Assembly (NCBI GenBank): GCA_016214555.1 | Contig: JACROF010000008.1 | Location: 1-47,140 of the forward strand | Source: Candidatus Levyibacteriota bacterium | GTDB lineage: Bacteria > Patescibacteriota > Microgenomatia > Levybacterales > UBA12049 | Direction of reading: 5' to 3' | Length of the DNA: 47,140 nucleotides | Part shown: positions 13,629 through 36,233 of the stretch, one piece after another | Numbering within the stretch: the stretch's first letter is position 1 | How the letters are laid out: each line of letters begins with the position of its first letter | Notes under the pieces: generated by a model | Databases searched by the model: none | Told to the model about the DNA's origin: nothing | The model's input: the letters and a program-made list of their open reading frames with translations, nothing else | Made by a program: the position numbers and the translations under genes

Positions 13629-14414
13629 TTATTTTGCACCCATTACGCGCGTTTGAAAACGGGTAAGAAGAGAAAGGGGAGTAAAGACGATACTTTTTGA
13701 GAGCGAATGAACATACATGATGGTCCCGATTTCAAGAAGCGTTGAAGGAACAGCTTTAAAAAGCGACACTTTGGTCCTTTTATCATCAGACCATGCGACA
13801 GGCACCTCAACAGTCGAGAATTTATTTTTTGCTGCAAGGTATAAAATTTCTGCATCATAGCCCCATCCATTAATAGCACTTTGAGGGAAAATGCTCTGGA
13901 CTGCTTTTTTTGAGAACGCTTTAAAGCCGCAGGTAAAATCGGTTACGTTACTTCTTAATAGTATTCTTGTTACTTTGGTAAATCCTCTCCCCATCATTTC
14001 ACGGATAAGTGGTTGGTGAACAATAACGGTTGAGTGACCATTTTTTCTTGTTCCGATAATAACGTCTGTTCCTCTCTCCATAAATGGAAGGAGTTTAACA
14101 AGCTGTGTGAGGGGCGTTGACATATCAGCGTCAAAAAAGAGCGTGTAGTCAGCGTTAGATTCAAGCATGCCTTGTCTTATGGCAAAACCCTTTCCTTTGT
14201 TAGTCTTGTAGGTCACAAGTTTGATATCAAAGCTTTTTTTAAGAGGAGATTTTTTGATAAGCGAGACTGTTTTATCAGTTGATCCGTCATTGACAAAGAT
14301 GACCTGGTTAAGTTTGAGGCCACGTGGAAGTACTAACTCTTCAAGAGCAGTAAATGTTTTATCCAGTCTTTTTTCCTCGTTATAGACGGGAATGACAAAT
14401 GAAATTGTTTTCAT
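13629..14414 (-). CDS. Family 2 glycosyltransferase, polyprenol/dolichol-phosphate sugar transferase-like (Dpm1/GtrB type)
   Basis: ISFVIPVYNEE, VNDGSTDKT, KGKGFA and the DADMS (DXD) motif. Confidence 0.8.
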   Translation of the reverse strand: MKTISFVIPVYNEEKRLDKTFTALEELVLPRGLKLNQVIFVNDGSTDKTVSLIKKSPLKKSFDIKLVTYKTNKGKGFAIRQGMLESNADYTLFFDADMSTPLTQLVKLLPFMERGTDVIIGTRKNGHSTVIVHQPLIREMMGRGFTKVTRILLRSNVTDFTCGFKAFSKKAVQSIFPQSAINGWGYDAEILYLAAKNKFSTVEVPVAWSDDKRTKVSLFKAVPSTLLEIGTIMYVHSLSKSIVFTPLSLLTRFQTRVMGAK

Positions 14415-14425
14415 AGTTTTATGTT

Positions 14426-14477
14426 CCGTTTCGGCCTTTCAGGCCTCATCAGGCCCCGATGGACATCGGGACGACGG
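14426..14477 (-). ncRNA. Type III hammerhead ribozyme motif HH1
   Basis: Minus strand reads CCGUC|GUCCCGAU-GUCC-AUCGGGGC CUGAUGA GGCC-UGAAA-GGCC GAA ACGG. Full core. Helix I is 8 bp, helix II 4 bp, helix III 4 bp. Its 3' end lies 11 nt before the ATG at 14414. Confidence 0.8.
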
Positions 14478-14554
14478 GATCAGGGATGGCATAAGCCATT
14501 TCGCTTGTCAGCGTCTCCCGCACCCACTTTTTCCACCGCAATTGGTGGTGAAGT

Positions 14555-14581
14555 GGGCGCGGTCAACTAGTGACCGCGCCC
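14555..14581 (-). other. 11-bp GC hairpin after the stop of 14610-15233
   Basis: GGGCGCGGTCA-ACTAG-TGACCGCGCCC. A second hairpin follows at 14523-14557. No U-tract. Confidence 0.7.
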
Positions 14582-16989: not shown

Positions 16990-17353
16990 GCTGCCTCCTT
17001 TTTGATAAGTGCGAACGCACGAAAATTCGTGCGTAAAACTATAGCAGGAAGAAAGATGACATAACTCTGGATGATACTGCGACATGCAGTGATATTCCAA
17101 GAGCCGAAAACAATCCAGCTTTGCTGGACTCTATTCGACTCTTGGGTTGAATAGTATATGAGGTAGTAAAGATTTCTCTTTACACCCTGATCTGTTAATG
17201 TGCGTTATTTGTTTTGTTTTATCCACCTGATCTTACTTCAAAGCTTTTCAGCCCGCCTAGCCGGCGAGGCTGGAACTATTCGTTCACGCTTTGAAGAGCG
17301 ATTATCGGCGGATTGTATACTTTTGAAAAATTAACTTAATAATTTTTGTATAC

Positions 17354-17481
17354 AAAAAAAAACCGGCCTTACGGTCGGGGAGAATAGCTGGCAGCTGTAT
17401 ATTGGTCTTGTCTATGGGTGCAGTCCAACTATTTTCTCCAACCCTCCGATGTAATTTCGGAGTTGTGTTCATACACAAGTA
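17354..17481 (-). ncRNA. Promoter-proximal structured leader or small RNA ending in a U9 tract
   Basis: Begins about 7 nt after the -10 of promoter 17488-17516. Hairpins UUGUGU/ACACAA and CUCCGA/UCGGAG, a 9-bp helix AAUAGUUGG/CCAGCUAUU, then CCGACC-GUAA-GGCCGG (one A.C mismatch) and UUUUUUUUU. Confidence 0.4.
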
Positions 17482-17487
17482 GGGAGA

Positions 17488-17516
17488 AGTATAGCAAATA
17501 TTATAGGATATGTCAA
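17488..17516 (-). promoter_or_regulatory. Sigma70-like promoter, conserved cassette copy a
   Basis: TTGACA-TATCCTATAATATTTGC-TATACT with a 17-nt spacer. Confidence 0.6.
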
Positions 17517-17567: not shown

Positions 17568-17632
17568 GTCATTTCGCCCGCCCTCGTAATAGCAAGGTCG
17601 AGGCTCATCAGGTCGCCTAAGGCGACGATGAC
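17568..17632 (-). ncRNA. Type III hammerhead ribozyme motif HH2
   Basis: GUCAUC|GUCGCC-UUA-GGCGAC CUGAUGA G-CCUCG-ACCUUGCUAUUA-CGAGG-GCGGG-C GAA AUGAC. Helix III GUCAU/AUGAC is compensatory relative to the other copies. Cleavage triplet is AUC. Confidence 0.75.
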
Positions 17633-17655: not shown

Positions 17656-17682
17656 GTGAGGCCTGGCAGAGCCAGGCCTCAC
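17656..17682 (-). other. 12-bp GC hairpin after the stop of 17692-18546
   Basis: GTGAGGCCTGGC-AGA-GCCAGGCCTCAC. Lies 23 nt upstream (in the minus sense) of HH2. Confidence 0.75.
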
Positions 17683-19753: not shown

Positions 19754-19782
19754 ACTATATCATATCTTATAGGATATGTCAA
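19754..19782 (-). promoter_or_regulatory. Sigma70-like promoter, conserved cassette copy b
   Basis: TTGACA-TATCCTATAAGATATGA-TATAGT with a 17-nt spacer. Confidence 0.6.
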
Positions 19783-21243: not shown

Positions 21244-21310
21244 TCTGTTTCGCTCTGTGATCTTTCGATCGAGGACTCATCAGGCCCCGATACTCATCGG
21301 GACGACAGAT
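21244..21310 (-). ncRNA. Type III hammerhead ribozyme motif HH3
   Basis: AUCUGUC|GUCCCGAU-GAGU-AUCGGGGC CUGAUGA GUCCUCGAUC-GAAA-GAUCACAGAGC GAA ACAGA. Confidence 0.8.
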
Positions 21311-21336
21311 GGGGTGGGGGCTTTCGCCCCCACCCC
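21311..21336 (-). other. GNRA-capped 11-bp GC hairpin abutting HH3
   Basis: GGGGUGGGGGC-GAAA-GCCCCCACCCC on the minus strand. Identical copies at 24844-24869 and 25268-25293. Confidence 0.85.
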
Positions 21337-21354: not shown

Positions 21355-21654
21355 CTAGTGCGATAGCGCGTACAGTTGTCCCAAGCGGGACTTGATCTGC
21401 TCGCGAAGCGCGATCATGATGTGAGCGAGGCCTTCGAGCAGGACGTTGGTAACCCGATTGAGCAGGTCATTGTCGTCCGCCGGAAGTCTTGCCCCGTCCA
21501 TGGTCGTAATCACGGCCTGCTCATCTCGCAGGTTGGTCGAGAAGTGAAGAGCCTCGTCGAGGCGAGCTTTCGCCGCCTTGAGGCTCCGCATTCGGACGTT
21601 TATTTCGTCCCGCGAAATGGCCGAAACCTGAATTGCTGTGATGGCCGTATTCAT
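21355..21654 (-). CDS. Hypothetical 99-aa protein (helical/coiled-coil-like)
   Basis: Preferred start is MNTAITAI at 21654, with AAGGAGG upstream. The ORF track extends to 21771. Confidence 0.55.
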   Translation of the reverse strand: MNTAITAIQVSAISRDEINVRMRSLKAAKARLDEALHFSTNLRDEQAVITTMDGARLPADDNDLLNRVTNVLLEGLAHIMIALREQIKSRLGQLYALSH

Positions 21655-21785
21655 CCGGCCACCTCCTTGTTGGCATACTTTTCCTACCCTCGTAGAAAAA
21701 GACTGTGCAGTGCCAAGCATCAGCGACAAACCTTGAGGGGTAGGCTTATCGCTAATTCTTGGATAAAGCATTTGTTAAAGATGGG

Positions 21786-21944: not shown

Positions 21945-22147
21945 GGTACTCCTTTGGCTGTTTATTGCCCAAAACCATTTCAGGCAATACTAGCGTTTGC
22001 CAGGCGCCAGCAGAAAATCTCGAAAGATTCGGGACTTGCTGCTAGCACCTGATACTTGTCTTTATGTAAATGTGCTTGTGACTTTTTTCAGGATAGAGCG
22101 CTATCCTCAAGAAAATCAGCATTCGGTTTTCGAAAAAGGGAATTGTC

Positions 22148-22171
22148 GGGGTCCCGCCAAGGCGGGACCCC
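22148..22171 (-). other. GC hairpin GGGGTCCCGCC/GGCGGGACCCC after the stop of 22203-22532
   Basis: 11-bp arms. A U-run occurs only about 10 nt further downstream, so this is a weak terminator at best. Confidence 0.6.
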
Positions 22172-22532: not shown

Positions 22533-22554
22533 CCGAATGCTGTGTTAAAGTTCG

Positions 22555-22616
22555 CTGTTTCGCCCGCCCTCGTAATAGCAAGGTCGAGGCTCATCGGTCC
22601 CGCTACGCGGGACCGC
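22555..22616 (-). ncRNA. Decayed hammerhead-like element HH4* (probably inactive)
   Basis: Same helix II as HH2/HH7 and same helix I as HH7. However the core reads CCGAUGA (U4 to C) and the cleavage triplet is CGG instead of GUC. It shares the 3' flank AGCGAACUUUAACACAGCAUUCG with HH5. Confidence 0.5.
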
Positions 22617-22629
22617 CCTATGAAAACGA

Positions 22630-23040
22630 CTACTCGTCGTTGTTGACGATGATCTCGCCAACCATGCCCACCAACTCGTGGGGGACACAGACGTAGTGAT
22701 ACGTCCCAGGAATCTGGAACGTATAGCTCCAGCTCTCGCCGGGTTGCAAAAGTCCTGAGTCCCAGGCTTCTGCTCCAACGGGAAGCAAGACAAGATTCGG
22801 GTTACGAACCTTGTTCGCGTCCGTAGTGACGCTGTGGACCAGTTCCTTGCTGACATTTTTCCAGGTGACGGTGTCACCGGGACGAATGGTCAGCGTGTGT
22901 GGGTCAAAGGTCATGTCGTTGGTCATTCTGACCACGTAGTCCTTTGGACCGGAGTCGTCCTGGGTGAGCCTGACGTAGGCAACGGTGCCTAGTAGGGCAG
23001 CCCAGAGCACAATGATCAAAACGATTTTTGTATTGCGCAT
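22630..23040 (-). CDS. Cupredoxin (plastocyanin/amicyanin/halocyanin-like blue copper protein) with N-terminal signal-anchor
   Basis: Preferred start is MRNTKIV at 23040, with GGAGG upstream. Type-1 Cu ligand pattern: H (VHSVTTD) plus C-x2-H-x4-M (YVCVPHELVGM). Confidence 0.8.
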   Translation of the reverse strand: MRNTKIVLIIVLWAALLGTVAYVRLTQDDSGPKDYVVRMTNDMTFDPHTLTIRPGDTVTWKNVSKELVHSVTTDANKVRNPNLVLLPVGAEAWDSGLLQPGESWSYTFQIPGTYHYVCVPHELVGMVGEIIVNNDE

Positions 23041-23083
23041 TTTTGCCTCCAAGACTTCAAATCGAATGCTGTGTTAAAGTTCG

Positions 23084-23133
23084 CTGTTTCGGCCTTTCAG
23101 GCCTCATCAGTTCCGATATCAATCGGAAGACAG
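23084..23133 (-). ncRNA. Type III hammerhead ribozyme motif HH5
   Basis: CUGUC|UUCCGAU-UGAU-AUCGGAA CUGAUGA GGCC-UGAAA-GGCC GAA ACAG. Confidence 0.8.
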
Positions 23134-23157
23134 AAGGTGTTGTGGGAAGGTTGGTTG

Positions 23158-23181
23158 CCGGGGGCGCATCTGCGCCCCCGG
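23158..23181 (-). other. GC hairpin after the stop of 23188-23610
   Basis: CCGGGGGCGCA/TGCGCCCCCGG. Lies 24 nt upstream of HH5. Confidence 0.75.
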
Positions 23182-23187
23182 CTGAGA

Positions 23188-23788: not shown

Positions 23789-23850
23789 CTGTTTTCATCT
23801 TGCCCTGCAGAGCAGGGAAGAATCATCAGGTCGCCTATGGCGACTAACAG
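23789..23850 (-). ncRNA. Type III hammerhead ribozyme motif HH6 (variant)
   Basis: CUGUUA|GUCGCC-AUA-GGCGAC CUGAUGA UUCUUCCCUGC-UCU-GCAGGGCAAGAU GAA AACAG. The core is intact and the cleavage triplet is UUA. Helix II closes with U.U instead of the usual G-C. Confidence 0.6.
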
Positions 23851-23872: not shown

Positions 23873-23898
23873 GGCGGGTGGGAATGACCCCACCCGCC
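23873..23898 (-). other. 10-bp GC hairpin after the stop of 23907-24566
   Basis: GGCGGGTGGG-AATGAC-CCCACCCGCC. Lies 22 nt upstream of HH6. Confidence 0.75.
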
Positions 23899-23906
23899 GG
23901 AGTAAC

Positions 23907-24566
23907 CTAGTCGACCGCCTCGGCCCACAATGTTACGGCACTCCGTTTCGTGATGGTTCCTGGAAAATCTGAGCCCCCTTCACGATCGAGGAGCGCGTGC
24001 TGGGGTACGGTGAAACACGAAGTGTCTCCCCGATAGATCCAGCCATTGGGCGTGCCGCGGTGACGAATCCACCCATCAGTGTTCCCGCCGACGATGGTCG
24101 ACAGGACGTTTGGGTTGATCTCGGCAAGAGCGGGTAGCGTGCCCATCTCTTGAGCCTCGCATCGGCCGGTGATTTCGCGGACCGCCTGGTCTTTGAAATT
24201 TTTGGCCTCGTCCTTGCCCAGCTCGATATAGAGCTTGGTCGCGAATCGGGTGAACTCGACCGTTTGTCGAGTTTGTGAGATGATTTTTGCTCCATGAGCG
24301 TAGCCGGTATAGAAGCCGGTGCCGGTCATGGTGATTCCGACGAGACCCGCAAGCCCTACCGCAGCAACCTTCTTGAGTATGCTGCCTCGTTGTCGGGCAT
24401 TCTGAGCAACCGACTCGCCCGTCTCCGGAAATTCCGGAGCGATGTCGTCCTCCTCAGCTGGAAGCTGGGGAAGAGCGGGTTGACCGCCGGCGAAAAAGCT
24501 GGCGACGATACCGAAAACGAGCAGAGCACTGATCGCGGAAAAAATCTTTCCAACAATGCGTAGCAT
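23907..24566 (-). CDS. Hypothetical membrane-anchored 219-aa protein
   Basis: Preferred start is MLRIVGKIFSAISALLVFGIVASFF at 24566, with AAAAGGAG upstream. The ORF track extends to 24701 through the repeat. Confidence 0.55.
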   Translation of the reverse strand: MLRIVGKIFSAISALLVFGIVASFFAGGQPALPQLPAEEDDIAPEFPETGESVAQNARQRGSILKKVAAVGLAGLVGITMTGTGFYTGYAHGAKIISQTRQTVEFTRFATKLYIELGKDEAKNFKDQAVREITGRCEAQEMGTLPALAEINPNVLSTIVGGNTDGWIRHRGTPNGWIYRGDTSCFTVPQHALLDREGGSDFPGTITKRSAVTLWAEAVD

Positions 24567-24622
24567 CGATCTCTCCTTTTGGGATAGAATTCGCGACGAT
24601 CTGTCGCGAAGCTTGCTTTTAG

Positions 24623-24690
24623 CCAGCTGCTGCACGGTGACTTTGGCACGGGCAGAAATAGCACCGTGTTCACGAACATGCAGAAGCTGG
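24623..24690 (-). repeat. 68-bp perfect repeat, copy A (candidate structured 5'-leader element)
   Basis: Identical to 26139-26206. The outer stem CCAGCU/AGCUGG is extended by different flanking pairs in the two copies. Confidence 0.8.
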
Positions 24691-24777
24691 CATAAAGCCA
24701 TAGATAGGTTTTTCTTAAAACCCCCTGTATGTAAAAGAACTCCCTCCTTTGCTCTTGCGAGCCTGGAGGACTATACG

Positions 24778-24843
24778 TCTGTTTCGCCCGCCCTCGCAAT
24801 AGCAAGGTCGAGGCTCATCAGTCCCGCTAAGCGGGAGACAGAT
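24778..24843 (-). ncRNA. Type III hammerhead ribozyme motif HH7
   Basis: AUCUGUC|UCCCGC-UUA-GCGGGA CUGAUGA G-CCUCG-ACCUUGCUAUUG-CGAGG-GCGGG-C GAA ACAGA. Confidence 0.78.
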
Positions 24844-24869
24844 GGGGTGGGGGCTTTCGCCCCCACCCC
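24844..24869 (-). other. GNRA-capped 11-bp GC hairpin abutting HH7
   Basis: GGGGUGGGGGC-GAAA-GCCCCCACCCC. Starts 7 nt after the stop of 24877-25173. Confidence 0.85.
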
Positions 24870-24876
24870 GGGATAG

Positions 24877-25173
24877 CTACAAGCGACGGATTACTTTTCC
24901 GTCTTTGATCCAATGTCCATCAGCGATGCTGTGGACTTCGGGATTGTCGAGTCGAGGCTGCTCGATTCGACCCTGGGCTCGTAGTTCGCGAACCAGCTCA
25001 GCGGCTTCGACGGGAAAGTCCCGCCAATAGCTTCGCTGGTACATCTTGACGAGCTCGGCCCAGTCCTCTTCGGTGCGGGCCGTCGTGCCCGCTACGATCT
25101 TCTCGACGTCCTCCCGGGCAACACGCCCTCTGAGGATGTCTTGAACGCAGAAAGAAAGACTGCGACCAATCAT
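24877..25173 (-). CDS. Hypothetical 98-aa protein
   Basis: ATG with AAGGAGG 6 nt upstream. Lies between HH8 and HH7. Confidence 0.6.
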   Translation of the reverse strand: MIGRSLSFCVQDILRGRVAREDVEKIVAGTTARTEEDWAELVKMYQRSYWRDFPVEAAELVRELRAQGRIEQPRLDNPEVHSIADGHWIKDGKVIRRL

Positions 25174-25196
25174 GCTAACCTCCTTTTAAAGAACTT

Positions 25197-25267
25197 TCTG
25201 TTTCGCTCTCATCCGCCTGTTGGCGGAAATGAGCTCATCAGGTCCGATGTTCATCGGGACGACAGAT
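25197..25267 (-). ncRNA. Type III hammerhead ribozyme motif HH8
   Basis: AUCUGUC|GUCCCGAU-GAAC-AUCGGAC CUGAUGA GCUCAUUUCCGCC-AACA-GGCGGAUGAGAGC GAA ACAGA. Its 3' end lies 23 nt before the ATG at 25173. Confidence 0.8.
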
Positions 25268-25293
25268 GGGGTGGGGGCTTTCGCCCCCACCCC
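25268..25293 (-). other. GNRA-capped 11-bp GC hairpin abutting HH8
   Basis: Identical to 21311-21336 and 24844-24869. Preceded by an 18-bp palindrome TTGTAGCAGCTGCTACAA that spans the stop of 25308-26084. Confidence 0.85.
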
Positions 25294-25307: not shown

Positions 25308-26084
25308 CTACAAGCTGCCGGTCTGATTGACGACTGGCACTTCGCAGACCACGCGATTGCGTGGATCGGCAAAGGTGCCAGAAATGTTCGGCGACACAGA
25401 AGTCGGACATTTAGAGTCCATCTCCTTGAATTCGTCGAATTTTGAAAAGCTCATGATGAGCCCTTTCGGGCCAACTCTCATGATGCGCGCCGTTCCTCGA
25501 TCAGGTCGCTCGTAGCGACCGAGGGCCATGATGCCATCGGACCAGAAAGGGTTGTCCTGGTCGTAGGCATAGATTTCACCCTGCGCCCAATAGCTCACTG
25601 TGTCCGGGATGTCGAAGTCAGCGCCTTGCCCGACGTACATGACGGCGGCCGTTGCGCCCCACGCTCCATATGTGAGAACGACAAAGTCGTCCTCGGTGCA
25701 TTCAGTTCGGCAGAGCTTGACCGCATCGTCGACAGTCATTGACCGTCCGATGTACGGCTCGTACCGATCCGGAGCGGACCAGTGTAGGTGGTCTGCCTTG
25801 TAGTGGAGAAACGCCAGGACGCCGAGGACGATTGCGATTGCAACTGCCCACGGAGCGATTCGGCGAAGAGCGCTTTGCTCATCGTCATCGTAGTCGCAGC
25901 AGTCCTCGTCATTGAGGATGGCCTTGACTTCTTGAACCTCGGTCAGAACCTGAGCGAGTTTGTCGTCGCTTGTGGCGGCGACTTGCTCATCAACGGCGTC
26001 CGAGTCATCCTGGTCTGTCTCTGATCGACCAGCGACCAAGAGGTCGTCGTCGTTTTTGACGTTTTCGTTGCTTGTGTCAGACAC
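25308..26084 (-). CDS. Hypothetical single-pass membrane protein with an acidic N-terminal region
   Basis: 258 aa. GTG start with GAGGAG 6 nt upstream. One TM (APWAVAIAIVLGVLAFL). Confidence 0.6.
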   Translation of the reverse strand: MSDTSNENVKNDDDLLVAGRSETDQDDSDAVDEQVAATSDDKLAQVLTEVQEVKAILNDEDCCDYDDDEQSALRRIAPWAVAIAIVLGVLAFLHYKADHLHWSAPDRYEPYIGRSMTVDDAVKLCRTECTEDDFVVLTYGAWGATAAVMYVGQGADFDIPDTVSYWAQGEIYAYDQDNPFWSDGIMALGRYERPDRGTARIMRVGPKGLIMSFSKFDEFKEMDSKCPTSVSPNISGTFADPRNRVVCEVPVVNQTGSL

Positions 26085-26138: not shown

Positions 26139-26206
26139 CCAGCTGCTGCACGGTGACTTTGGCACGGGCAGAAATAGCACCGTGTTCACGAACATGCAGA
26201 AGCTGG
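26139..26206 (-). repeat. 68-bp perfect repeat, copy B (in the 5' leader of 25308-26084)
   Basis: Identical to 24623-24690. Here the outer stem is extended to GGTACCAGCT/AGCTGGTACC. Confidence 0.8.
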
Positions 26207-26317: not shown

Positions 26318-26346
26318 ATAGTAGCATAGCCTATAAGATTTGTCAA
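26318..26346 (-). promoter_or_regulatory. Sigma70-like promoter, conserved cassette copy c
   Basis: TTGACA-AATCTTATAGGCTATGC-TACTAT with a 17-nt spacer. Confidence 0.6.
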
Positions 26347-28015: not shown

Positions 28016-28044
28016 ATAATATCATATCCTATAGGGATTGTCAA
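28016..28044 (-). promoter_or_regulatory. Sigma70-like promoter, conserved cassette copy d
   Basis: TTGACA-ATCCCTATAGGATATGA-TATTAT with a 17-nt spacer. Confidence 0.6.
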
Positions 28045-28839: not shown

Positions 28840-31608
28840 ATGATTGTAGCTATGACAGATGTTGCCCCTGATGCCCAAAATGCCCTTTCTAAAAGAGTAA
28901 TTCTTGAGATTAAGACGTCACGAACGGGTGAGGAAACTCCTGAGGCGATGAAGCAATTTTTGACCAACCTCACCAACCTTCGTTTTCGTCGGATGCTGCT
29001 TCACAAAAAAGGTATTCCAATTAGTCTTGAGATAGCGGTCGTTGATCAGGCAATCCATTTTTATGTGACAGCACCCATAGAATTTCAGTCATTTCTTGAG
29101 AGTCAGCTTGTCTCACAGTACCCAAAAGCATCTATTCTTAAGGTCGAGGACTATTTACCAAGTCTTCTTGCGCAGTCGGGAACGCTTTCTTTGGGGCAGC
29201 TTAAGCTTGAGCATGATTATTATTATCCCATCAGGACGTATGCCGATTTTAAGGATGTTGATCCACTTTCCTCAGTTATTGCTGCTCTTTCAAAAAATCA
29301 ACCAGGCGATAGTGTGAGTATTCAGTTTCTTTTGTATCCAGTCTCTGATAGCTGGCAAAGGAGTGGAAAAAGTTTTGCTACTTCAAAAACGACAGATGGT
29401 AGCGGGGCTGCTGTTGCCAATCCTTATGCAAAGATTGTCGAAGAGAAAGTCGCGTATGCAGGATTTAAGGTAGGGATCCGTCTTGCTGTTGGGGCACAGT
29501 CAAAGGCAAGAAGCAGTCAGTATTTACTCGAGATAGCAAATACGTTTTCATCATTTAACAACCCTTCAGGGAACAGCTTTAGGCTGAGAAAGCCTTATCT
29601 TTGGCAGAAGAATAGGATTAAAAAAGTCATGCTTTCGCGTTCGAGATTTTTTACACCAACACATCAATATATGAATGTTGTTGAACTTGCGACGCTGTTT
29701 CATCTCCCCACAAACAAGCTTGCAACAATCCCTAATATCTCATGGCATCAGGTTATTCTTTCTGATGCTCCAGAAAATCTGCCTGTAGCTGAGGGGATGA
29801 CTGAGGAGCAAAAGCTTGATACTAATTTTTTTGCCAGAACCCAATTTCGTAACAAGCCCACAGTATTTGGTATTAAGACAAAGGACAGAAGGCGCCATTT
29901 TTATGTCATCGGAAAAACAGGCACTGGTAAATCAACACTTATTGCCAATATGGCAATTAACGATATGCGTCAGAGGAGAGGGTTTTGTATTATCGATCCT
30001 CACGGAGATCTTTGCGAGACGGTTATGGACTACGTACCATCCTATAGAGTTAATGATGTAATTTATCTTGATCCCTCAGAAAAGGAGTATGCATTTTCTC
30101 TTAACCCTTTTGAGGTCAAAGATGAGGCACAAAAAGAACTTACCATCTCAGGTATTGTAGCTATTTTCCAAAAAATCTTTGCTGATTCGTGGGGTCCTAG
30201 GCTTGAGTACATTCTTCGCAATACGCTTCAGAGTGTCATCGAGATGCCCGACGCTACGCTTCTTATGGTTCCTGAAGCACTGTCAAATCCAGCATTTCGA
30301 AAAAGAATGATTGCCAATCTTACCGATCCAATTCTGAGGTCATTTTGGGAAAATGAGTTTGAGAAGATGACTGACAAGCTTCGTATTGAGGCTATTTCAC
30401 CGATTCAAAATAAGGTCGGGCAATTTATCTCAAGTACGGTCATCAGAAATATCATCAAGAGCCCCAAATCGACAATTGATCTCCAACAGGTGATGGATGA
30501 GGGGAAAATTGTGCTTATGAATCTGTCGCAGGGAAAATTGGGAGAGGACAATGCAGCGCTTTTGGGGGCGATGTTTATCACTAAATTCCAGCTTTCAGCG
30601 ATGAATCGTGTCTATCTAGCTGAGGAAGAAAGAAAAGACTTTTATCTCTATGTGGATGAGTTTCAAAATTTTGCAACTTCAAGTTTTATTAAAATTTTAT
30701 CTGAGGCACGAAAATATCGCTTGAACCTTCTTTTGGCAAATCAGTACATTGGCCAGATTCCAGAGGATGTGCGTCTGGCAATATTTGGCAATTGCGGGAC
30801 AATGATGTCATTTTTAGTCGGAGCAGGAGATAGTCCGTACCTGGCAAAAGAATTTAGTGAGAGATTTAAAGAAGAGGATATCTTGGCACTCGCGAATTAT
30901 CAGTCGATGACGAAGATGATGATTGATGGAAGAACGTCGCCTCCTTTTATGTGTTATACCTTGCCACTTCCTAATAGCGAGACACAGAATAGAGAGAAAG
31001 TTATCCAGGCATCAAAAGAGCGGTATATGAAGCCTGTTGTGAAGGAGGTTGCGGTTGATACGCTTGCCTCGGTTGCAGCTAGGGCACAAATTGCACAAGA
31101 AGATGCCGCAAAATCTTTCTCCCAACCAGTCCAGCCTATACGCTCAGATGTGCGTCCTTCGTCTGGTCAGCAGGTTTCGTCTGCTTCTCTCCAGCCTCAA
31201 CAATCGTATGCTCAAAAGCCACCATCACTCCCTGCTCAAAGAGATGCTGTTACATCAGAACCTCAGGGGCAGCCTGTCACCCGTCCTCACATACCAGAGG
31301 GTAAGCCTTTGGAGGTAAAAAAAGATATGCCACAGCATCAGTCAATAGCAAAACCAGCTCATGTGCCAGCTGCTGTGCAGAAAGTTGAAGGGCAGGAGGA
31401 GAAAAGATCAATGGGGAATCAGCCTCACGCGTCGCAGAGGCCTAAAAGGAGAGACAATAGGCGACCTCAGCAGTCTTCGCATCAAAGACAGCAGTCTCAA
31501 GGTCATAGTCAGCCTCACGCTGAGCATAGGCCTCCAGCTCATCAAGAGCCTAAGCCTACTCCAGTTTCTGATAAGCCAAAAGTTACCAATTTATATACCT
31601 CAGAGTAA
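28840..31608 (+). CDS. Type IV coupling-protein-like ATPase (TraD/VirD4/TraG, FtsK-HerA superfamily) with a Q/P/H-rich tail
   Basis: Walker A GKTGTGKST, Walker B-like FYLYVDEFQNF, and ARKYRLNLLLANQ. About 200 aa of low-complexity C-terminus. Confidence 0.7.
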   Translation: MIVAMTDVAPDAQNALSKRVILEIKTSRTGEETPEAMKQFLTNLTNLRFRRMLLHKKGIPISLEIAVVDQAIHFYVTAPIEFQSFLESQLVSQYPKASILKVEDYLPSLLAQSGTLSLGQLKLEHDYYYPIRTYADFKDVDPLSSVIAALSKNQPGDSVSIQFLLYPVSDSWQRSGKSFATSKTTDGSGAAVANPYAKIVEEKVAYAGFKVGIRLAVGAQSKARSSQYLLEIANTFSSFNNPSGNSFRLRKPYLWQKNRIKKVMLSRSRFFTPTHQYMNVVELATLFHLPTNKLATIPNISWHQVILSDAPENLPVAEGMTEEQKLDTNFFARTQFRNKPTVFGIKTKDRRRHFYVIGKTGTGKSTLIANMAINDMRQRRGFCIIDPHGDLCETVMDYVPSYRVNDVIYLDPSEKEYAFSLNPFEVKDEAQKELTISGIVAIFQKIFADSWGPRLEYILRNTLQSVIEMPDATLLMVPEALSNPAFRKRMIANLTDPILRSFWENEFEKMTDKLRIEAISPIQNKVGQFISSTVIRNIIKSPKSTIDLQQVMDEGKIVLMNLSQGKLGEDNAALLGAMFITKFQLSAMNRVYLAEEERKDFYLYVDEFQNFATSSFIKILSEARKYRLNLLLANQYIGQIPEDVRLAIFGNCGTMMSFLVGAGDSPYLAKEFSERFKEEDILALANYQSMTKMMIDGRTSPPFMCYTLPLPNSETQNREKVIQASKERYMKPVVKEVAVDTLASVAARAQIAQEDAAKSFSQPVQPIRSDVRPSSGQQVSSASLQPQQSYAQKPPSLPAQRDAVTSEPQGQPVTRPHIPEGKPLEVKKDMPQHQSIAKPAHVPAAVQKVEGQEEKRSMGNQPHASQRPKRRDNRRPQQSSHQRQQSQGHSQPHAEHRPPAHQEPKPTPVSDKPKVTNLYTSE

Positions 31609-33480: not shown

Positions 33481-34845
33481 ATGGCATATAAAAAATCAAG
33501 TCAGACGACTCGTTCAGAGAAGCCCGTTTCAGATGTGGGTGATTTTGTTGGTGAAGCGCCACGAGAGGAGGGCGTTTCTGAAGTTTTGTCTGCAGCTCCA
33601 CGTGTAGCCTCAGAGCCTCCAGCACAAGTTGTCCCACCAGCGAATGCTGATCAGGGATTTAGCAATGGACACTCTCAAAGGTATCAAAGAGATAATTTTG
33701 CTGGATCATCCCACTTTGCTCCTCAAATTCAAAGCGTTCCAACAGAAAATGTCATGGGGTTTTTGGATCTTCAGCCTGAAGGTCACGGATTTTTAAGACC
33801 TAAATTTATTCCTTCAAACCGTGATATCTATATTTCACAGTCTCAAATTCGAAGATTTATGCTTCGAGGAGGAGATCAGGTTGAGGGGGTTGCTAGGCCG
33901 CCAAAAGACACAGAAAGATATTATGGATTACTTAAGGTTGAGAAAGTAAACGGTAAAACTCCAGAAGAGTCAGCGAAAAGACCTTGGTTTGATGACCTTA
34001 CTCCTATTTATCCTAAGCAGCAACTCACACTTGCTACAGACAAAACCCCTCTTTCAACAAGAATTATTGATCTTGTTGCACCTATTGGCATGGGACAGAG
34101 AGGTATGATTGTCTCTCCTCCAAAAGCTGGTAAGACAACTATTATGAAGGAGATTGCAACAGGTATTACAAAAAATTTCCCAGATATTCATCTTATGGCA
34201 GCTCTTATTGGTGAGCGACCTGAAGAGGTAACAGATCTTACCATGTCTGTTCGAGGAGAAGTAATAGCCTCAAATTTTGATGAACCACCAGAGAATCAGA
34301 CTCGAGTTGCTGAAATAACCCTCGAGCGAGCAAAACGACTTGTTGAGATGGGAGTAGATGTTGTTATTCTTCTTGATTCAATTACTCGTTTGGCTCGTGC
34401 ATACAATCTTTCTGTTGCTCCATCAGGAAGAACGCTTTCAGGAGGATTTGATCCAGCAGCTTTGTGGCCTGCGAAAAGATTCTTTGGTGCAGCGAGAAAT
34501 TGCCAAGAGGGTGGATCACTCACAATCATAGGCACAGCGCTTGTTGAAACAGGTTCTCGTCTTGATGATCTTGTCTACGAAGAGTTTAAGGGAACAGGTA
34601 ATATGGAGCTCCATTTAGATAGGCGTCTTGCTGAGCGAAGAATTTATCCTGCTATTAACATTGAAAGGTCTGGAACACGACAGGAAGAGCTTCTTTTGTC
34701 AGAGAAAAATTATAAAAAGATTGTTACCATGAGGAGAATGATGGACATGCTCAATCCGGAAGAAAGAACAGCCCTCTTTATTGATCAGCTTAATAAAACA
34801 GGGAGCAATGAAGAATTCTTGGAGAATCTCGGTCAGGATAAATAA
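33481..34845 (+). CDS. rho: Transcription termination factor Rho (with an N-terminal extension)
   Basis: RNA-binding region (GFLRPKF..DIYISQSQIRRF.LR.GD), Walker A PPKAGKTT, and conserved Rho C-terminal motifs (GTGNMELHLDR.LAERRIYPAI). Confidence 0.92.
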   Translation: MAYKKSSQTTRSEKPVSDVGDFVGEAPREEGVSEVLSAAPRVASEPPAQVVPPANADQGFSNGHSQRYQRDNFAGSSHFAPQIQSVPTENVMGFLDLQPEGHGFLRPKFIPSNRDIYISQSQIRRFMLRGGDQVEGVARPPKDTERYYGLLKVEKVNGKTPEESAKRPWFDDLTPIYPKQQLTLATDKTPLSTRIIDLVAPIGMGQRGMIVSPPKAGKTTIMKEIATGITKNFPDIHLMAALIGERPEEVTDLTMSVRGEVIASNFDEPPENQTRVAEITLERAKRLVEMGVDVVILLDSITRLARAYNLSVAPSGRTLSGGFDPAALWPAKRFFGAARNCQEGGSLTIIGTALVETGSRLDDLVYEEFKGTGNMELHLDRRLAERRIYPAINIERSGTRQEELLLSEKNYKKIVTMRRMMDMLNPEERTALFIDQLNKTGSNEEFLENLGQDK

Positions 34846-36156: not shown

Positions 36157-36233
36157 GGGCCGTTAGCTCAGTTGGCTAGAGCGTTCGCATGGCATGCGAA
36201 AGGTCGTCGGTTCAAATCCGATACGGTCCACCA
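36157..36233 (+). tRNA. tRNA-Ala (anticodon GGC), CCA encoded
   Basis: Cloverleaf folded by hand. 7-bp acceptor stem with the G3:U70 Ala identity pair, anticodon loop AUGGCAU, T-loop GGTTCAAATCC, and 3' ACCA. Confidence 0.88.

Follow-up and report, generated by a model that had tools for sequence, protein, structure and literature searches.

The subject of this analysis is an RNA hairpin that immediately precedes a hammerhead ribozyme at several gene junctions in a 47,140-nt stretch of contig JACROF010000008.1 (assembly GCA_016214555.1, Candidatus Levyibacteriota bacterium), hereafter the window. With modest confidence, the hairpin and the type III hammerhead that follows it are read here as a composite processing and 3'-end protection module placed between co-transcribed genes. 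An earlier note on this DNA had described a designed module rather than scattered ribozymes, and the layout supports this view well: the hairpin is enriched in related loci, its sequence changes at a fixed position, and it lies between genes of the same strand.

A hairpin fused to a hammerhead at three junctions

All hammerhead and hairpin features under study lie on the minus strand of a GC-rich island, which extends from about 14.4 to 28.5 kb and has a GC content of 50-57%, with short low-GC breaks inside, against mostly about 40% across the window. The hairpin, designated Hairpin A, has the structure GGGGUGGGGGC-GAAA-GCCCCCACCCC (26-mer GGGGTGGGGGCGAAAGCCCCCACCCC), with an 11-bp stem and a GAAA loop that are present in every predicted fold. 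Three exact copies lie on the window's minus strand, and the number stays at three when three mismatches are permitted, against 0 expected by chance; every copy is fused to a hammerhead (3/3). The earlier description of one identical hairpin with an 11-bp stem and a GNRA loop at three hammerhead junctions is thus accurate to the letter of the 26-mer.

The first copy (25268-25293) separates an open reading frame (ORF) of 258 aa (ORF258; 25308-26084) from one of 98 aa (ORF98; 24877-25173), both on the minus strand, and begins 14 nt past the ORF258 stop codon (25308-25310). The second (24844-24869), between ORF98 and the next ORF, begins 7 nt past the stop codon at 24877-24879, and ORF98 thereby carries a hairpin-hammerhead module on each side. 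The third (21311-21336) begins 18 nt past the stop codon of the ORF at 21355-21771. In each case Hairpin A is followed by a single unpaired A (25267, 24843 and 21310), by UCUGU, which forms the 5' strand of helix III, and by C17. The spacing between hairpin and helix III, previously given as zero, is therefore 1 nt at all three junctions. Cuts after C17 are predicted between 25261 and 25260, 24837 and 24836, and 21304 and 21303; the predicted 5' product would end in Hairpin A plus AUCUGUC, in agreement with the proposed RNA end 7 nt past the hairpin.

The three ribozymes, all on the minus strand, were scored with R1, a covariance model built from 38 related sequences, none of them from the window, and run across the window with filters off. 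HH8 occupies 25197-25267 including the spacer A at 25267 (R1 span 25197-25262, 29 bits, E 3e-6), with the helix III 5' strand at 25266-25262, C17 at 25261, CUGAUGA from 25241, GAAA at 25204-25201 and the 3' strand reaching 25197; a Shine-Dalgarno sequence follows it, and an ATG lies 23 nt downstream. HH7 extends over 24778-24843 including its spacer A at 24843 (43 bits, E 2.5e-10), with UCUGU at 24842-24838, C17 at 24837 and CUGAUGA from 24821. HH3 covers 21244-21310, with the spacer A at 21310 and C17 at 21304 (40.5 bits, E 1e-9), and is followed by an extended -10 promoter-like site and not directly by an ORF. All three share one layout, in which UCUGUC is followed by helix I with its loop, by CUGAUGA, by helix II, likewise capped, and by GAAACAGA; helix III has 5 bp, and the cleavage site is GUC. 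Among the window copies, HH3, HH7 and HH8 alone carry, after a same-strand ORF, a perfectly paired hairpin of 6 bp or more that ends 0-2 nt before helix III.

These hairpins do not resemble intrinsic terminators. Hairpin A is followed by AUCUGUC and the other GC hairpins by mixed sequence, and the terminator scan omits all of them; the reported lack of U-tracts thus holds, although U-tract terminators do occur elsewhere in the island. Two further identities of Hairpin A were considered and rejected. An attC-like or REP-like repeat does not fit an element that is never found without a ribozyme and has a perfect stem with a GNRA loop, and a terminator of the opposite strand does not fit the T-tract being on neither side. 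An exact search of viral contigs for Hairpin A returned 0 matches.

A hammerhead class largely missed by Rfam

In the window, R1 recovers six hammerheads with E-values from 5e-12 to 1e-4, together with one weak variant and one degenerate copy. In the alignment of 38 sequences, 99.8% of the cells in helices I and II are paired and 164 cells are changed on both sides; such changes affect 9/10 variable pairs of these helices, and 0/500 shuffles reach the observed covariation score. Both the R1 alignments and the predicted folds display the type III topology, with helices I and II capped and helix III open. The core CUGANGA / helix II / GAAA is intact in HH1, HH2, HH3, HH5, HH7 and HH8 as well as in the variant HH6, and helix I is preceded by an NUH cleavage triplet with the A15.1-U16.1 pair (GUC in five ribozymes, AUC in HH2, UUA in HH6). 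The pattern CUGAUGA..GAAAC matches 5 times in the window, against 0.31 expected. On structural grounds, placing the window copies in the type III hammerhead family is well founded; the intact ones would self-cleave and leave a 2',3'-cyclic phosphate on one product and a 5'-OH on the other.

Most members of this class escape the Rfam Hammerhead_3 model. At the gathering score Rfam finds no hammerhead in the window, and among 17 related loci with about 50 R1 copies, six class relatives pass the RF00008 gathering score, at 48.5-54 bits.

Conservation of the module in related loci

The closest comparison is provided by contig L160. Of 14 homologues of ORF98, the nearest (86% identity) lies on this contig, next to a 261-aa ORF that is the only homologue of ORF258 in a large protein collection; no viral contigs encoding relatives of ORF258 were found. 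Both equivalent junctions of L160 carry a hairpin followed by a type III hammerhead, which Rfam misses at E 0.1. The L160 hairpin, GGGCGGGGC-CUUGU-GCCCCGCCC, is the same in both copies but unlike Hairpin A, and is followed by GA and then CUGU. As L160 was found by protein similarity alone, it offers independent confirmation, with structure and position kept and the hairpin sequence changed. The distant homologues of ORF98 belong to phage-like arrays of small ORFs, and no hammerheads were found near them (L159, L161-L172); the module is therefore independent of this gene family.

Relatives were also sought with a pattern describing the hammerhead alone, (A)TCTGTC..CTGATGAG..CGAAACAGA, with nothing specified upstream. 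It matched at 10 loci in viral contigs, 28 loci in species-representative genomes and at least 120 stretches of metagenome contigs (L039-L158). The survey statistics rest on 158 unique hammerheads with enough upstream sequence, among the matches listed. Of 21 genome records whose names are informative, 15 are from Patescibacteria (Saccharibacteria, Paceibacteria, Parcubacteria and others), and many relatives, like the window, have three or four same-strand hammerheads per locus (e.g., L013, L014, L025, L044, L047, L090). The search pattern also reaches beyond bacteria and phages: on metagenome contig Ga0209358_10006182 (locus L070), a complete eukaryotic rRNA gene unit (18S, 5.8S, 28S) has four hammerheads of this class on its flanks.

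In 65/158 relatives (41%), UCUGUC is preceded at 0-2 nt by a perfectly paired hairpin of 6 bp or more, against 6.7% at random positions of the same loci (odds ratio 9.7, p 2e-32). The distance to helix III is sharply defined: 43 of these hairpins are flush with it, 15 stand 1 nt away and 7 stand 2 nt away, and the distribution is flat from 3 to 30 nt, with about two cases per bin. When the upstream 40 nt are clustered at 65% identity, the hairpin is retained in 46/117 clusters (39%), and it also abuts 45/99 R1 matches. The abutting hairpins comprise 63 distinct sequences; their stems have a median length of 9 bp, and their free energy has a median of -12.4 kcal/mol. Certain families of hairpins are found in more than one genome and differ there by compensatory changes (GACGGATAG/CTATCCGTC versus GATGGATAG/CTATCCATC, for example). 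The genomic setting is similarly regular: a same-strand ORF ends no more than 150 nt upstream in 79% of relatives versus 34% of controls, most abutting hairpins begin 5-18 nt past the stop codon, and the next start codon is typically 18-40 nt downstream of the hammerhead.

These statistics bear on the idea that the association is functionless, in which ordinary post-ORF hairpins or decayed terminators merely happen to precede ribozymes and the three window copies stem from recent duplication or gene conversion of a repeat that includes the 5' edge of the ribozyme. The window ribozymes are indeed mosaics, in which the hairpin, helix I, helix II and the 3' flank are common to differing sets of copies (repeat families D1, D2 and D5-D8), a pattern that points to recombination or gene conversion among copies; GC hairpins without a ribozyme also follow island ORFs, for instance near 22147-22170. 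This explanation is nevertheless improbable: enrichment and sharp spacing hold over 117 independent sequence clusters from many genomes, the hairpin of L160 has been replaced in sequence while keeping its position, and the window hairpins lack a U-tract even though true U-tract terminators lie nearby.

Proposed mechanism

In the proposed mechanism, RNA polymerase would transcribe the stop codon, hairpin, hammerhead, 5' untranslated region (5'UTR) and next ORF as one RNA, after which the hammerhead would fold and cut itself after C17, 7 nt past the hairpin. In the type III topology nearly the whole ribozyme would leave with the downstream fragment, and an upstream mRNA without the hairpin would therefore end in a bare single strand. 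With the hairpin, it would end in a very stable stem carrying a tail of at most 7 nt and a 2',3'-cyclic phosphate, an end expected to offer 3' exonucleases little grip. The downstream mRNA would begin with a 5'-OH within the folded ribozyme. As helix III has just 5 bp, the cleavage products should part quickly, and the hairpin, lying flush against helix III, probably stacks on it as well. Cleavage in vivo, protection from nucleases and stacking are what we infer from the sequences, predicted folds, conservation and positional statistics.

A different use of the same parts can be envisaged, with the hairpin serving as a recognition or docking element, either a protein-binding site or a platform that re-forms the hammerhead from the ends of excised RNA for re-ligation into circular or spliced RNA. 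It would be in keeping with hairpins that are identical within a genome and different between genomes (window, L160, L078, L047), with the identical helix III strands of HH3, HH7 and HH8, and with the 5'-OH and 2',3'-cyclic phosphate that an RNA excised between HH8 and HH7 would carry; ligation was also raised as a possibility by Perreault et al. (PMC3088659). The same authors, however, sought spliced or circular products and found none (PMC3088659), a 5-bp helix III is a weak clamp for end joining, no candidate binding protein was identified, and the simpler account of identity within a genome is concerted evolution among the repeats, so that such a docking role seems scarcely probable. Its most specific form would have an excised RNA, such as the roughly 420-nt ORF98 RNA released by the HH8 and HH7 cuts, pair its own ends, rebuild a nicked hammerhead and, through self-ligation or an RtcB-type ligase, yield circular mRNAs or exon swaps between cistrons. 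The 3' end could pair with its own 5' ribozyme body because the modules share the hairpin and the helix III strands (AUCUGUC ... GAAACAGA), yet we consider this outcome very improbable.

Protection of the 3' end or support of the ribozyme

The preference for 3'-end protection over support of a short open helix stems from the contrast with type II hammerheads, which lack the abutting hairpin and possess a terminal hairpin of their own. In a set of 49 structure-filtered type II hammerheads from viral contigs, an abutting hairpin occurs in 3/49 (6%, the background rate; type III versus type II p 1.3e-6), the open helix, here helix II, is just 4 bp long in 46/49, and the upstream product ends in its own helix III hairpin with a median of -9.1 kcal/mol. 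This pattern favours a picture in which the additional hairpin accompanies ribozymes whose upstream product would lack a terminal structure, and not simply those with a short open helix.

The main rival to 3'-end protection regards the hairpin as a pure folding aid, which stacks on the 5-bp helix III and shields its 5' strand from the upstream coding sequence, with no role in the fate of the mRNA. The extremely sharp spacing (43/15/7 at 0/1/2 nt), with no enrichment at 3-30 nt, agrees with such a role, and an additional stacked helix is geometrically plausible, given that helices II and III stack coaxially in hammerhead structures (PMC10085705). The type II set, on the other hand, copes with a 4-bp open helix almost always without an abutting hairpin. 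Partition-function folding with the hairpin present or deleted, a model that ignores stacking and tertiary contacts, gives helix III probabilities that are low throughout and no different (p 0.78); with those contacts left out, the comparison is uninformative. At three window hammerheads the GC hairpin stands 22-25 nt off, a distance that precludes stacking. A purely structural role is accordingly regarded as unlikely, though less so than the functionless or docking explanations.

Several observations nonetheless weigh against 3'-end protection, and some of them are the ones that a folding aid would explain. An abutting hairpin is undetectable in 59% of class members, and these show no excess of hairpins at 3-30 nt (37% versus 39% in controls); were protection the sole purpose, distant hairpins should serve too, and the lack of such an excess argues against that. 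An extended helix III of at least 7 bp is commoner without the hairpin (30%) than with it (12%, p 0.007). Hairpin presence is not associated with an upstream ORF as judged by a crude ORF call (odds ratio 1.17, p 0.71). The contrast between type II and type III is confounded by lineage, which differs between the two sets, and a search of the 17 related loci for other ribozyme classes, with which topologies might be compared inside one lineage, found none. Finally, RF00008 at an E-value threshold picks out HH5 only in the window, at 34.4 bits against a gathering score of 48.5. The sharp 0-2 nt spacing could also reflect structural coupling to helix III, and next to 3'-end protection the hairpin probably has a secondary structural role, e.g., stacking on helix III.

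Other ribozymes and genes of the island

The hammerhead copies number eight in all, lying between ORFs on the minus strand from 14.4 to 25.3 kb, an arrangement of same-strand hammerheads flanking single genes. Beyond the three described above, HH5 (23083-23134; R1 48 bits, with the RF00008 score already given) has an 11-bp GC hairpin 23 nt upstream (23157-23182) and the start of a cupredoxin ORF 43 nt downstream. HH6 (23789-23850) is a variant with a weak R1 score of 8.7 bits, a UUA site and a U.U at the base of helix II; an 11-bp hairpin (23873-23898) lies 22 nt upstream. HH2 (17568-17632; 24 bits, AUC site) is preceded at 25 nt by a 10-bp hairpin (17658-17680) and followed after about 50 nt by a consensus promoter. 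For HH1 (14425-14478; 37 bits) the nearest GC hairpin (14555-14581) is 77 nt upstream. The notion that all four of these ribozymes have a 10-12 bp GC hairpin 22-45 nt upstream therefore survives for three of them (10-11 bp; 23, 22 and 25 nt) and fails for the fourth, and the distances of 11, 23 and 43 nt from HH1, HH8 and HH5 to the next start codon were given correctly. In the stretch 13629-14478, HH1 coincides exactly with the GC-content boundary, a low-GC GT2 glycosyltransferase gene starts 11 nt downstream of it, and HH1 would cut read-through from the island into this host-like gene. The remaining copy (22554-22616; 13 bits, E 0.16) has the core CCGAUGA (U4 to C) and a 2-nt deletion at the cleavage site and helix I, and is probably inactive.

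A motif close to RWTCTTTAA is located 3-5 nt past the 3' strand of helix III in the window (25186-25195, 23071-23079 and 24729-24738) and in about a quarter of the 158 related hammerheads (e.g., L011, L023, L035, L047), and its 6-mers are 10-23 times enriched over background. It may represent a third component of the module, such as a 5'UTR element. Another repeat, 68 nt long and exact, is found at 24623-24690 and 26139-26206 (minus strand), in the 5'UTRs of the ORFs at 23907-24701 and 25308-26084; its fold is a long stem-loop of irregular shape (-41 kcal/mol, z about -6). Rfam gave no match for this repeat and the viral contigs 0 exact copies, and ahead of the orthologous ORF in L160 its 3' part is partly conserved.

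Four copies of a 33-nt sigma-70-like promoter repeat on the minus strand (28016-28044, 26318-26346, 19754-19782 and 17488-17516), with near-consensus TTGACA, 17 nt, TAnnnT and a TG extended -10, split the island into what the sequence indicates are several transcription units. The copy at 26318-26346 would drive a transcript comprising ORF258, hairpin-HH8, ORF98, hairpin-HH7 and onward. A possible small RNA gene lies at 17352-17516 (minus strand), where about 130 nt with no ORF separate a consensus promoter from a downstream hairpin with a nine-U run.

The window belongs to a bacterial chromosome. It opens with the last part of a 23S rRNA gene, together with a 5S rRNA gene, and also contains a tRNA gene at 36157-36230. 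Small, mostly orphan ORFs are strung along the island. When ten island proteins were compared with PHROGs and Pfam, the recognisable ones were a plastocyanin-like cupredoxin (22633-23052) and a PASTA-domain protein; no PHROG matches were found beyond the plastocyanin-like protein, a blastn search of the island against 50,697 phage records gave no match, and neither integrase nor structural genes were seen in the island. Distant ORF98 homologues lie in arrays resembling phage early genes, with a UvrD helicase, an HMUDK_hel domain protein and thymidylate kinase on the 120-kb contig L161, and SSB, T5orf172 and Acb5 on L159, and this suggests that the small ORFs of the island are of phage origin. 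A gene for a VirD4/TraD-like coupling ATPase (28840-31608, plus strand) adjoins the island, and a full-length Rho factor gene (33481-34845, plus strand) is located nearby, so Rho-dependent termination is available to the host.

Comparison with known systems

Clustered hammerheads of prophages, flanking single genes or short blocks, were described by Perreault et al. in 2011, who observed in vitro cleavage for three arrangements and proposed that long phage transcripts are cut into gene-length mRNAs (PMC3088659). As in those clusters, several hammerheads on one strand of the island flank single genes or short blocks, here in DNA that may be mobile or phage-like. Here, unlike there, a hairpin is combined with a type III hammerhead, and the relatives are mostly Patescibacteria metagenome-assembled genomes and uncultured viral contigs. 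No hairpin before the ribozyme is mentioned in that work, where the word "terminator" is absent and "hairpin" denotes stem loops only (PMC3088659).

Phage type II hammerheads are likewise intergenic and often clustered, and their upstream product also ends in a stable GC-rich hairpin with a very short tail; this terminal hairpin, however, is their own helix III, whereas in the type III ribozymes considered here it is a separate addition. With intrinsic terminators the module shares a GC-rich hairpin a few nucleotides past the stop codon, but the U-tract is missing, AUCUGUC and the ribozyme follow, and transcription is expected to continue. In T7 early mRNA, RNase III cuts polycistronic phage RNA between genes and leaves stabilising 3' stems, a process that needs a host protein nuclease. 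RiboJ, a synthetic insulator made of a ribozyme and a hairpin, standardises mRNA ends, with the hairpin downstream of the ribozyme.

The combination of ribozymes with operon processing is thus known, and what appear to be new are the accessory hairpin and its dependence on ribozyme topology; a literature search, with subscription journals outside its reach, returned no paper linking hammerheads to Patescibacteria or describing a hairpin fused upstream of a type III hammerhead. Because the hairpin is conserved where the topology would leave a bare upstream end and absent where the ribozyme provides a terminal hairpin of its own, the data provide comparative evidence that these ribozymes may serve to produce stable mRNAs of gene length with no need of protein nucleases or terminators. 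The hairpin together with the type III core also gives a search handle for these ribozymes, which Rfam mostly overlooks. More broadly, this bears on the role of thousands of bacterial and phage hammerheads, which is still described as unsettled, a 2019 review having called the purpose of bacterial ribozymes undefined (PMC6765202).

The closest parallel is an engineered one. In pRAP (Liu et al. 2022), a stem-loop just upstream of the ribozyme cut was needed for expression of the upstream cistrons in E. coli, which were poorly expressed when it was missing (PMC9872166). There as here, a stem-loop stands just before a self-cleaving ribozyme between cistrons, and each released mRNA is, or would be, hairpin-ended; pRAP, however, is an artificial E. 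coli system built on the twister ribozyme, whereas the present module is natural and uses a hammerhead. Of the operon processing or 3'-end formation suggested in the earlier note, the former repeats the proposal of 2011, and the latter, in the form of 3'-end protection, gains from both the type II/type III contrast and this parallel. The module shows that the pRAP design, reached independently by engineers, has a natural counterpart, which is apparently frequent in Patescibacteria and their viruses.

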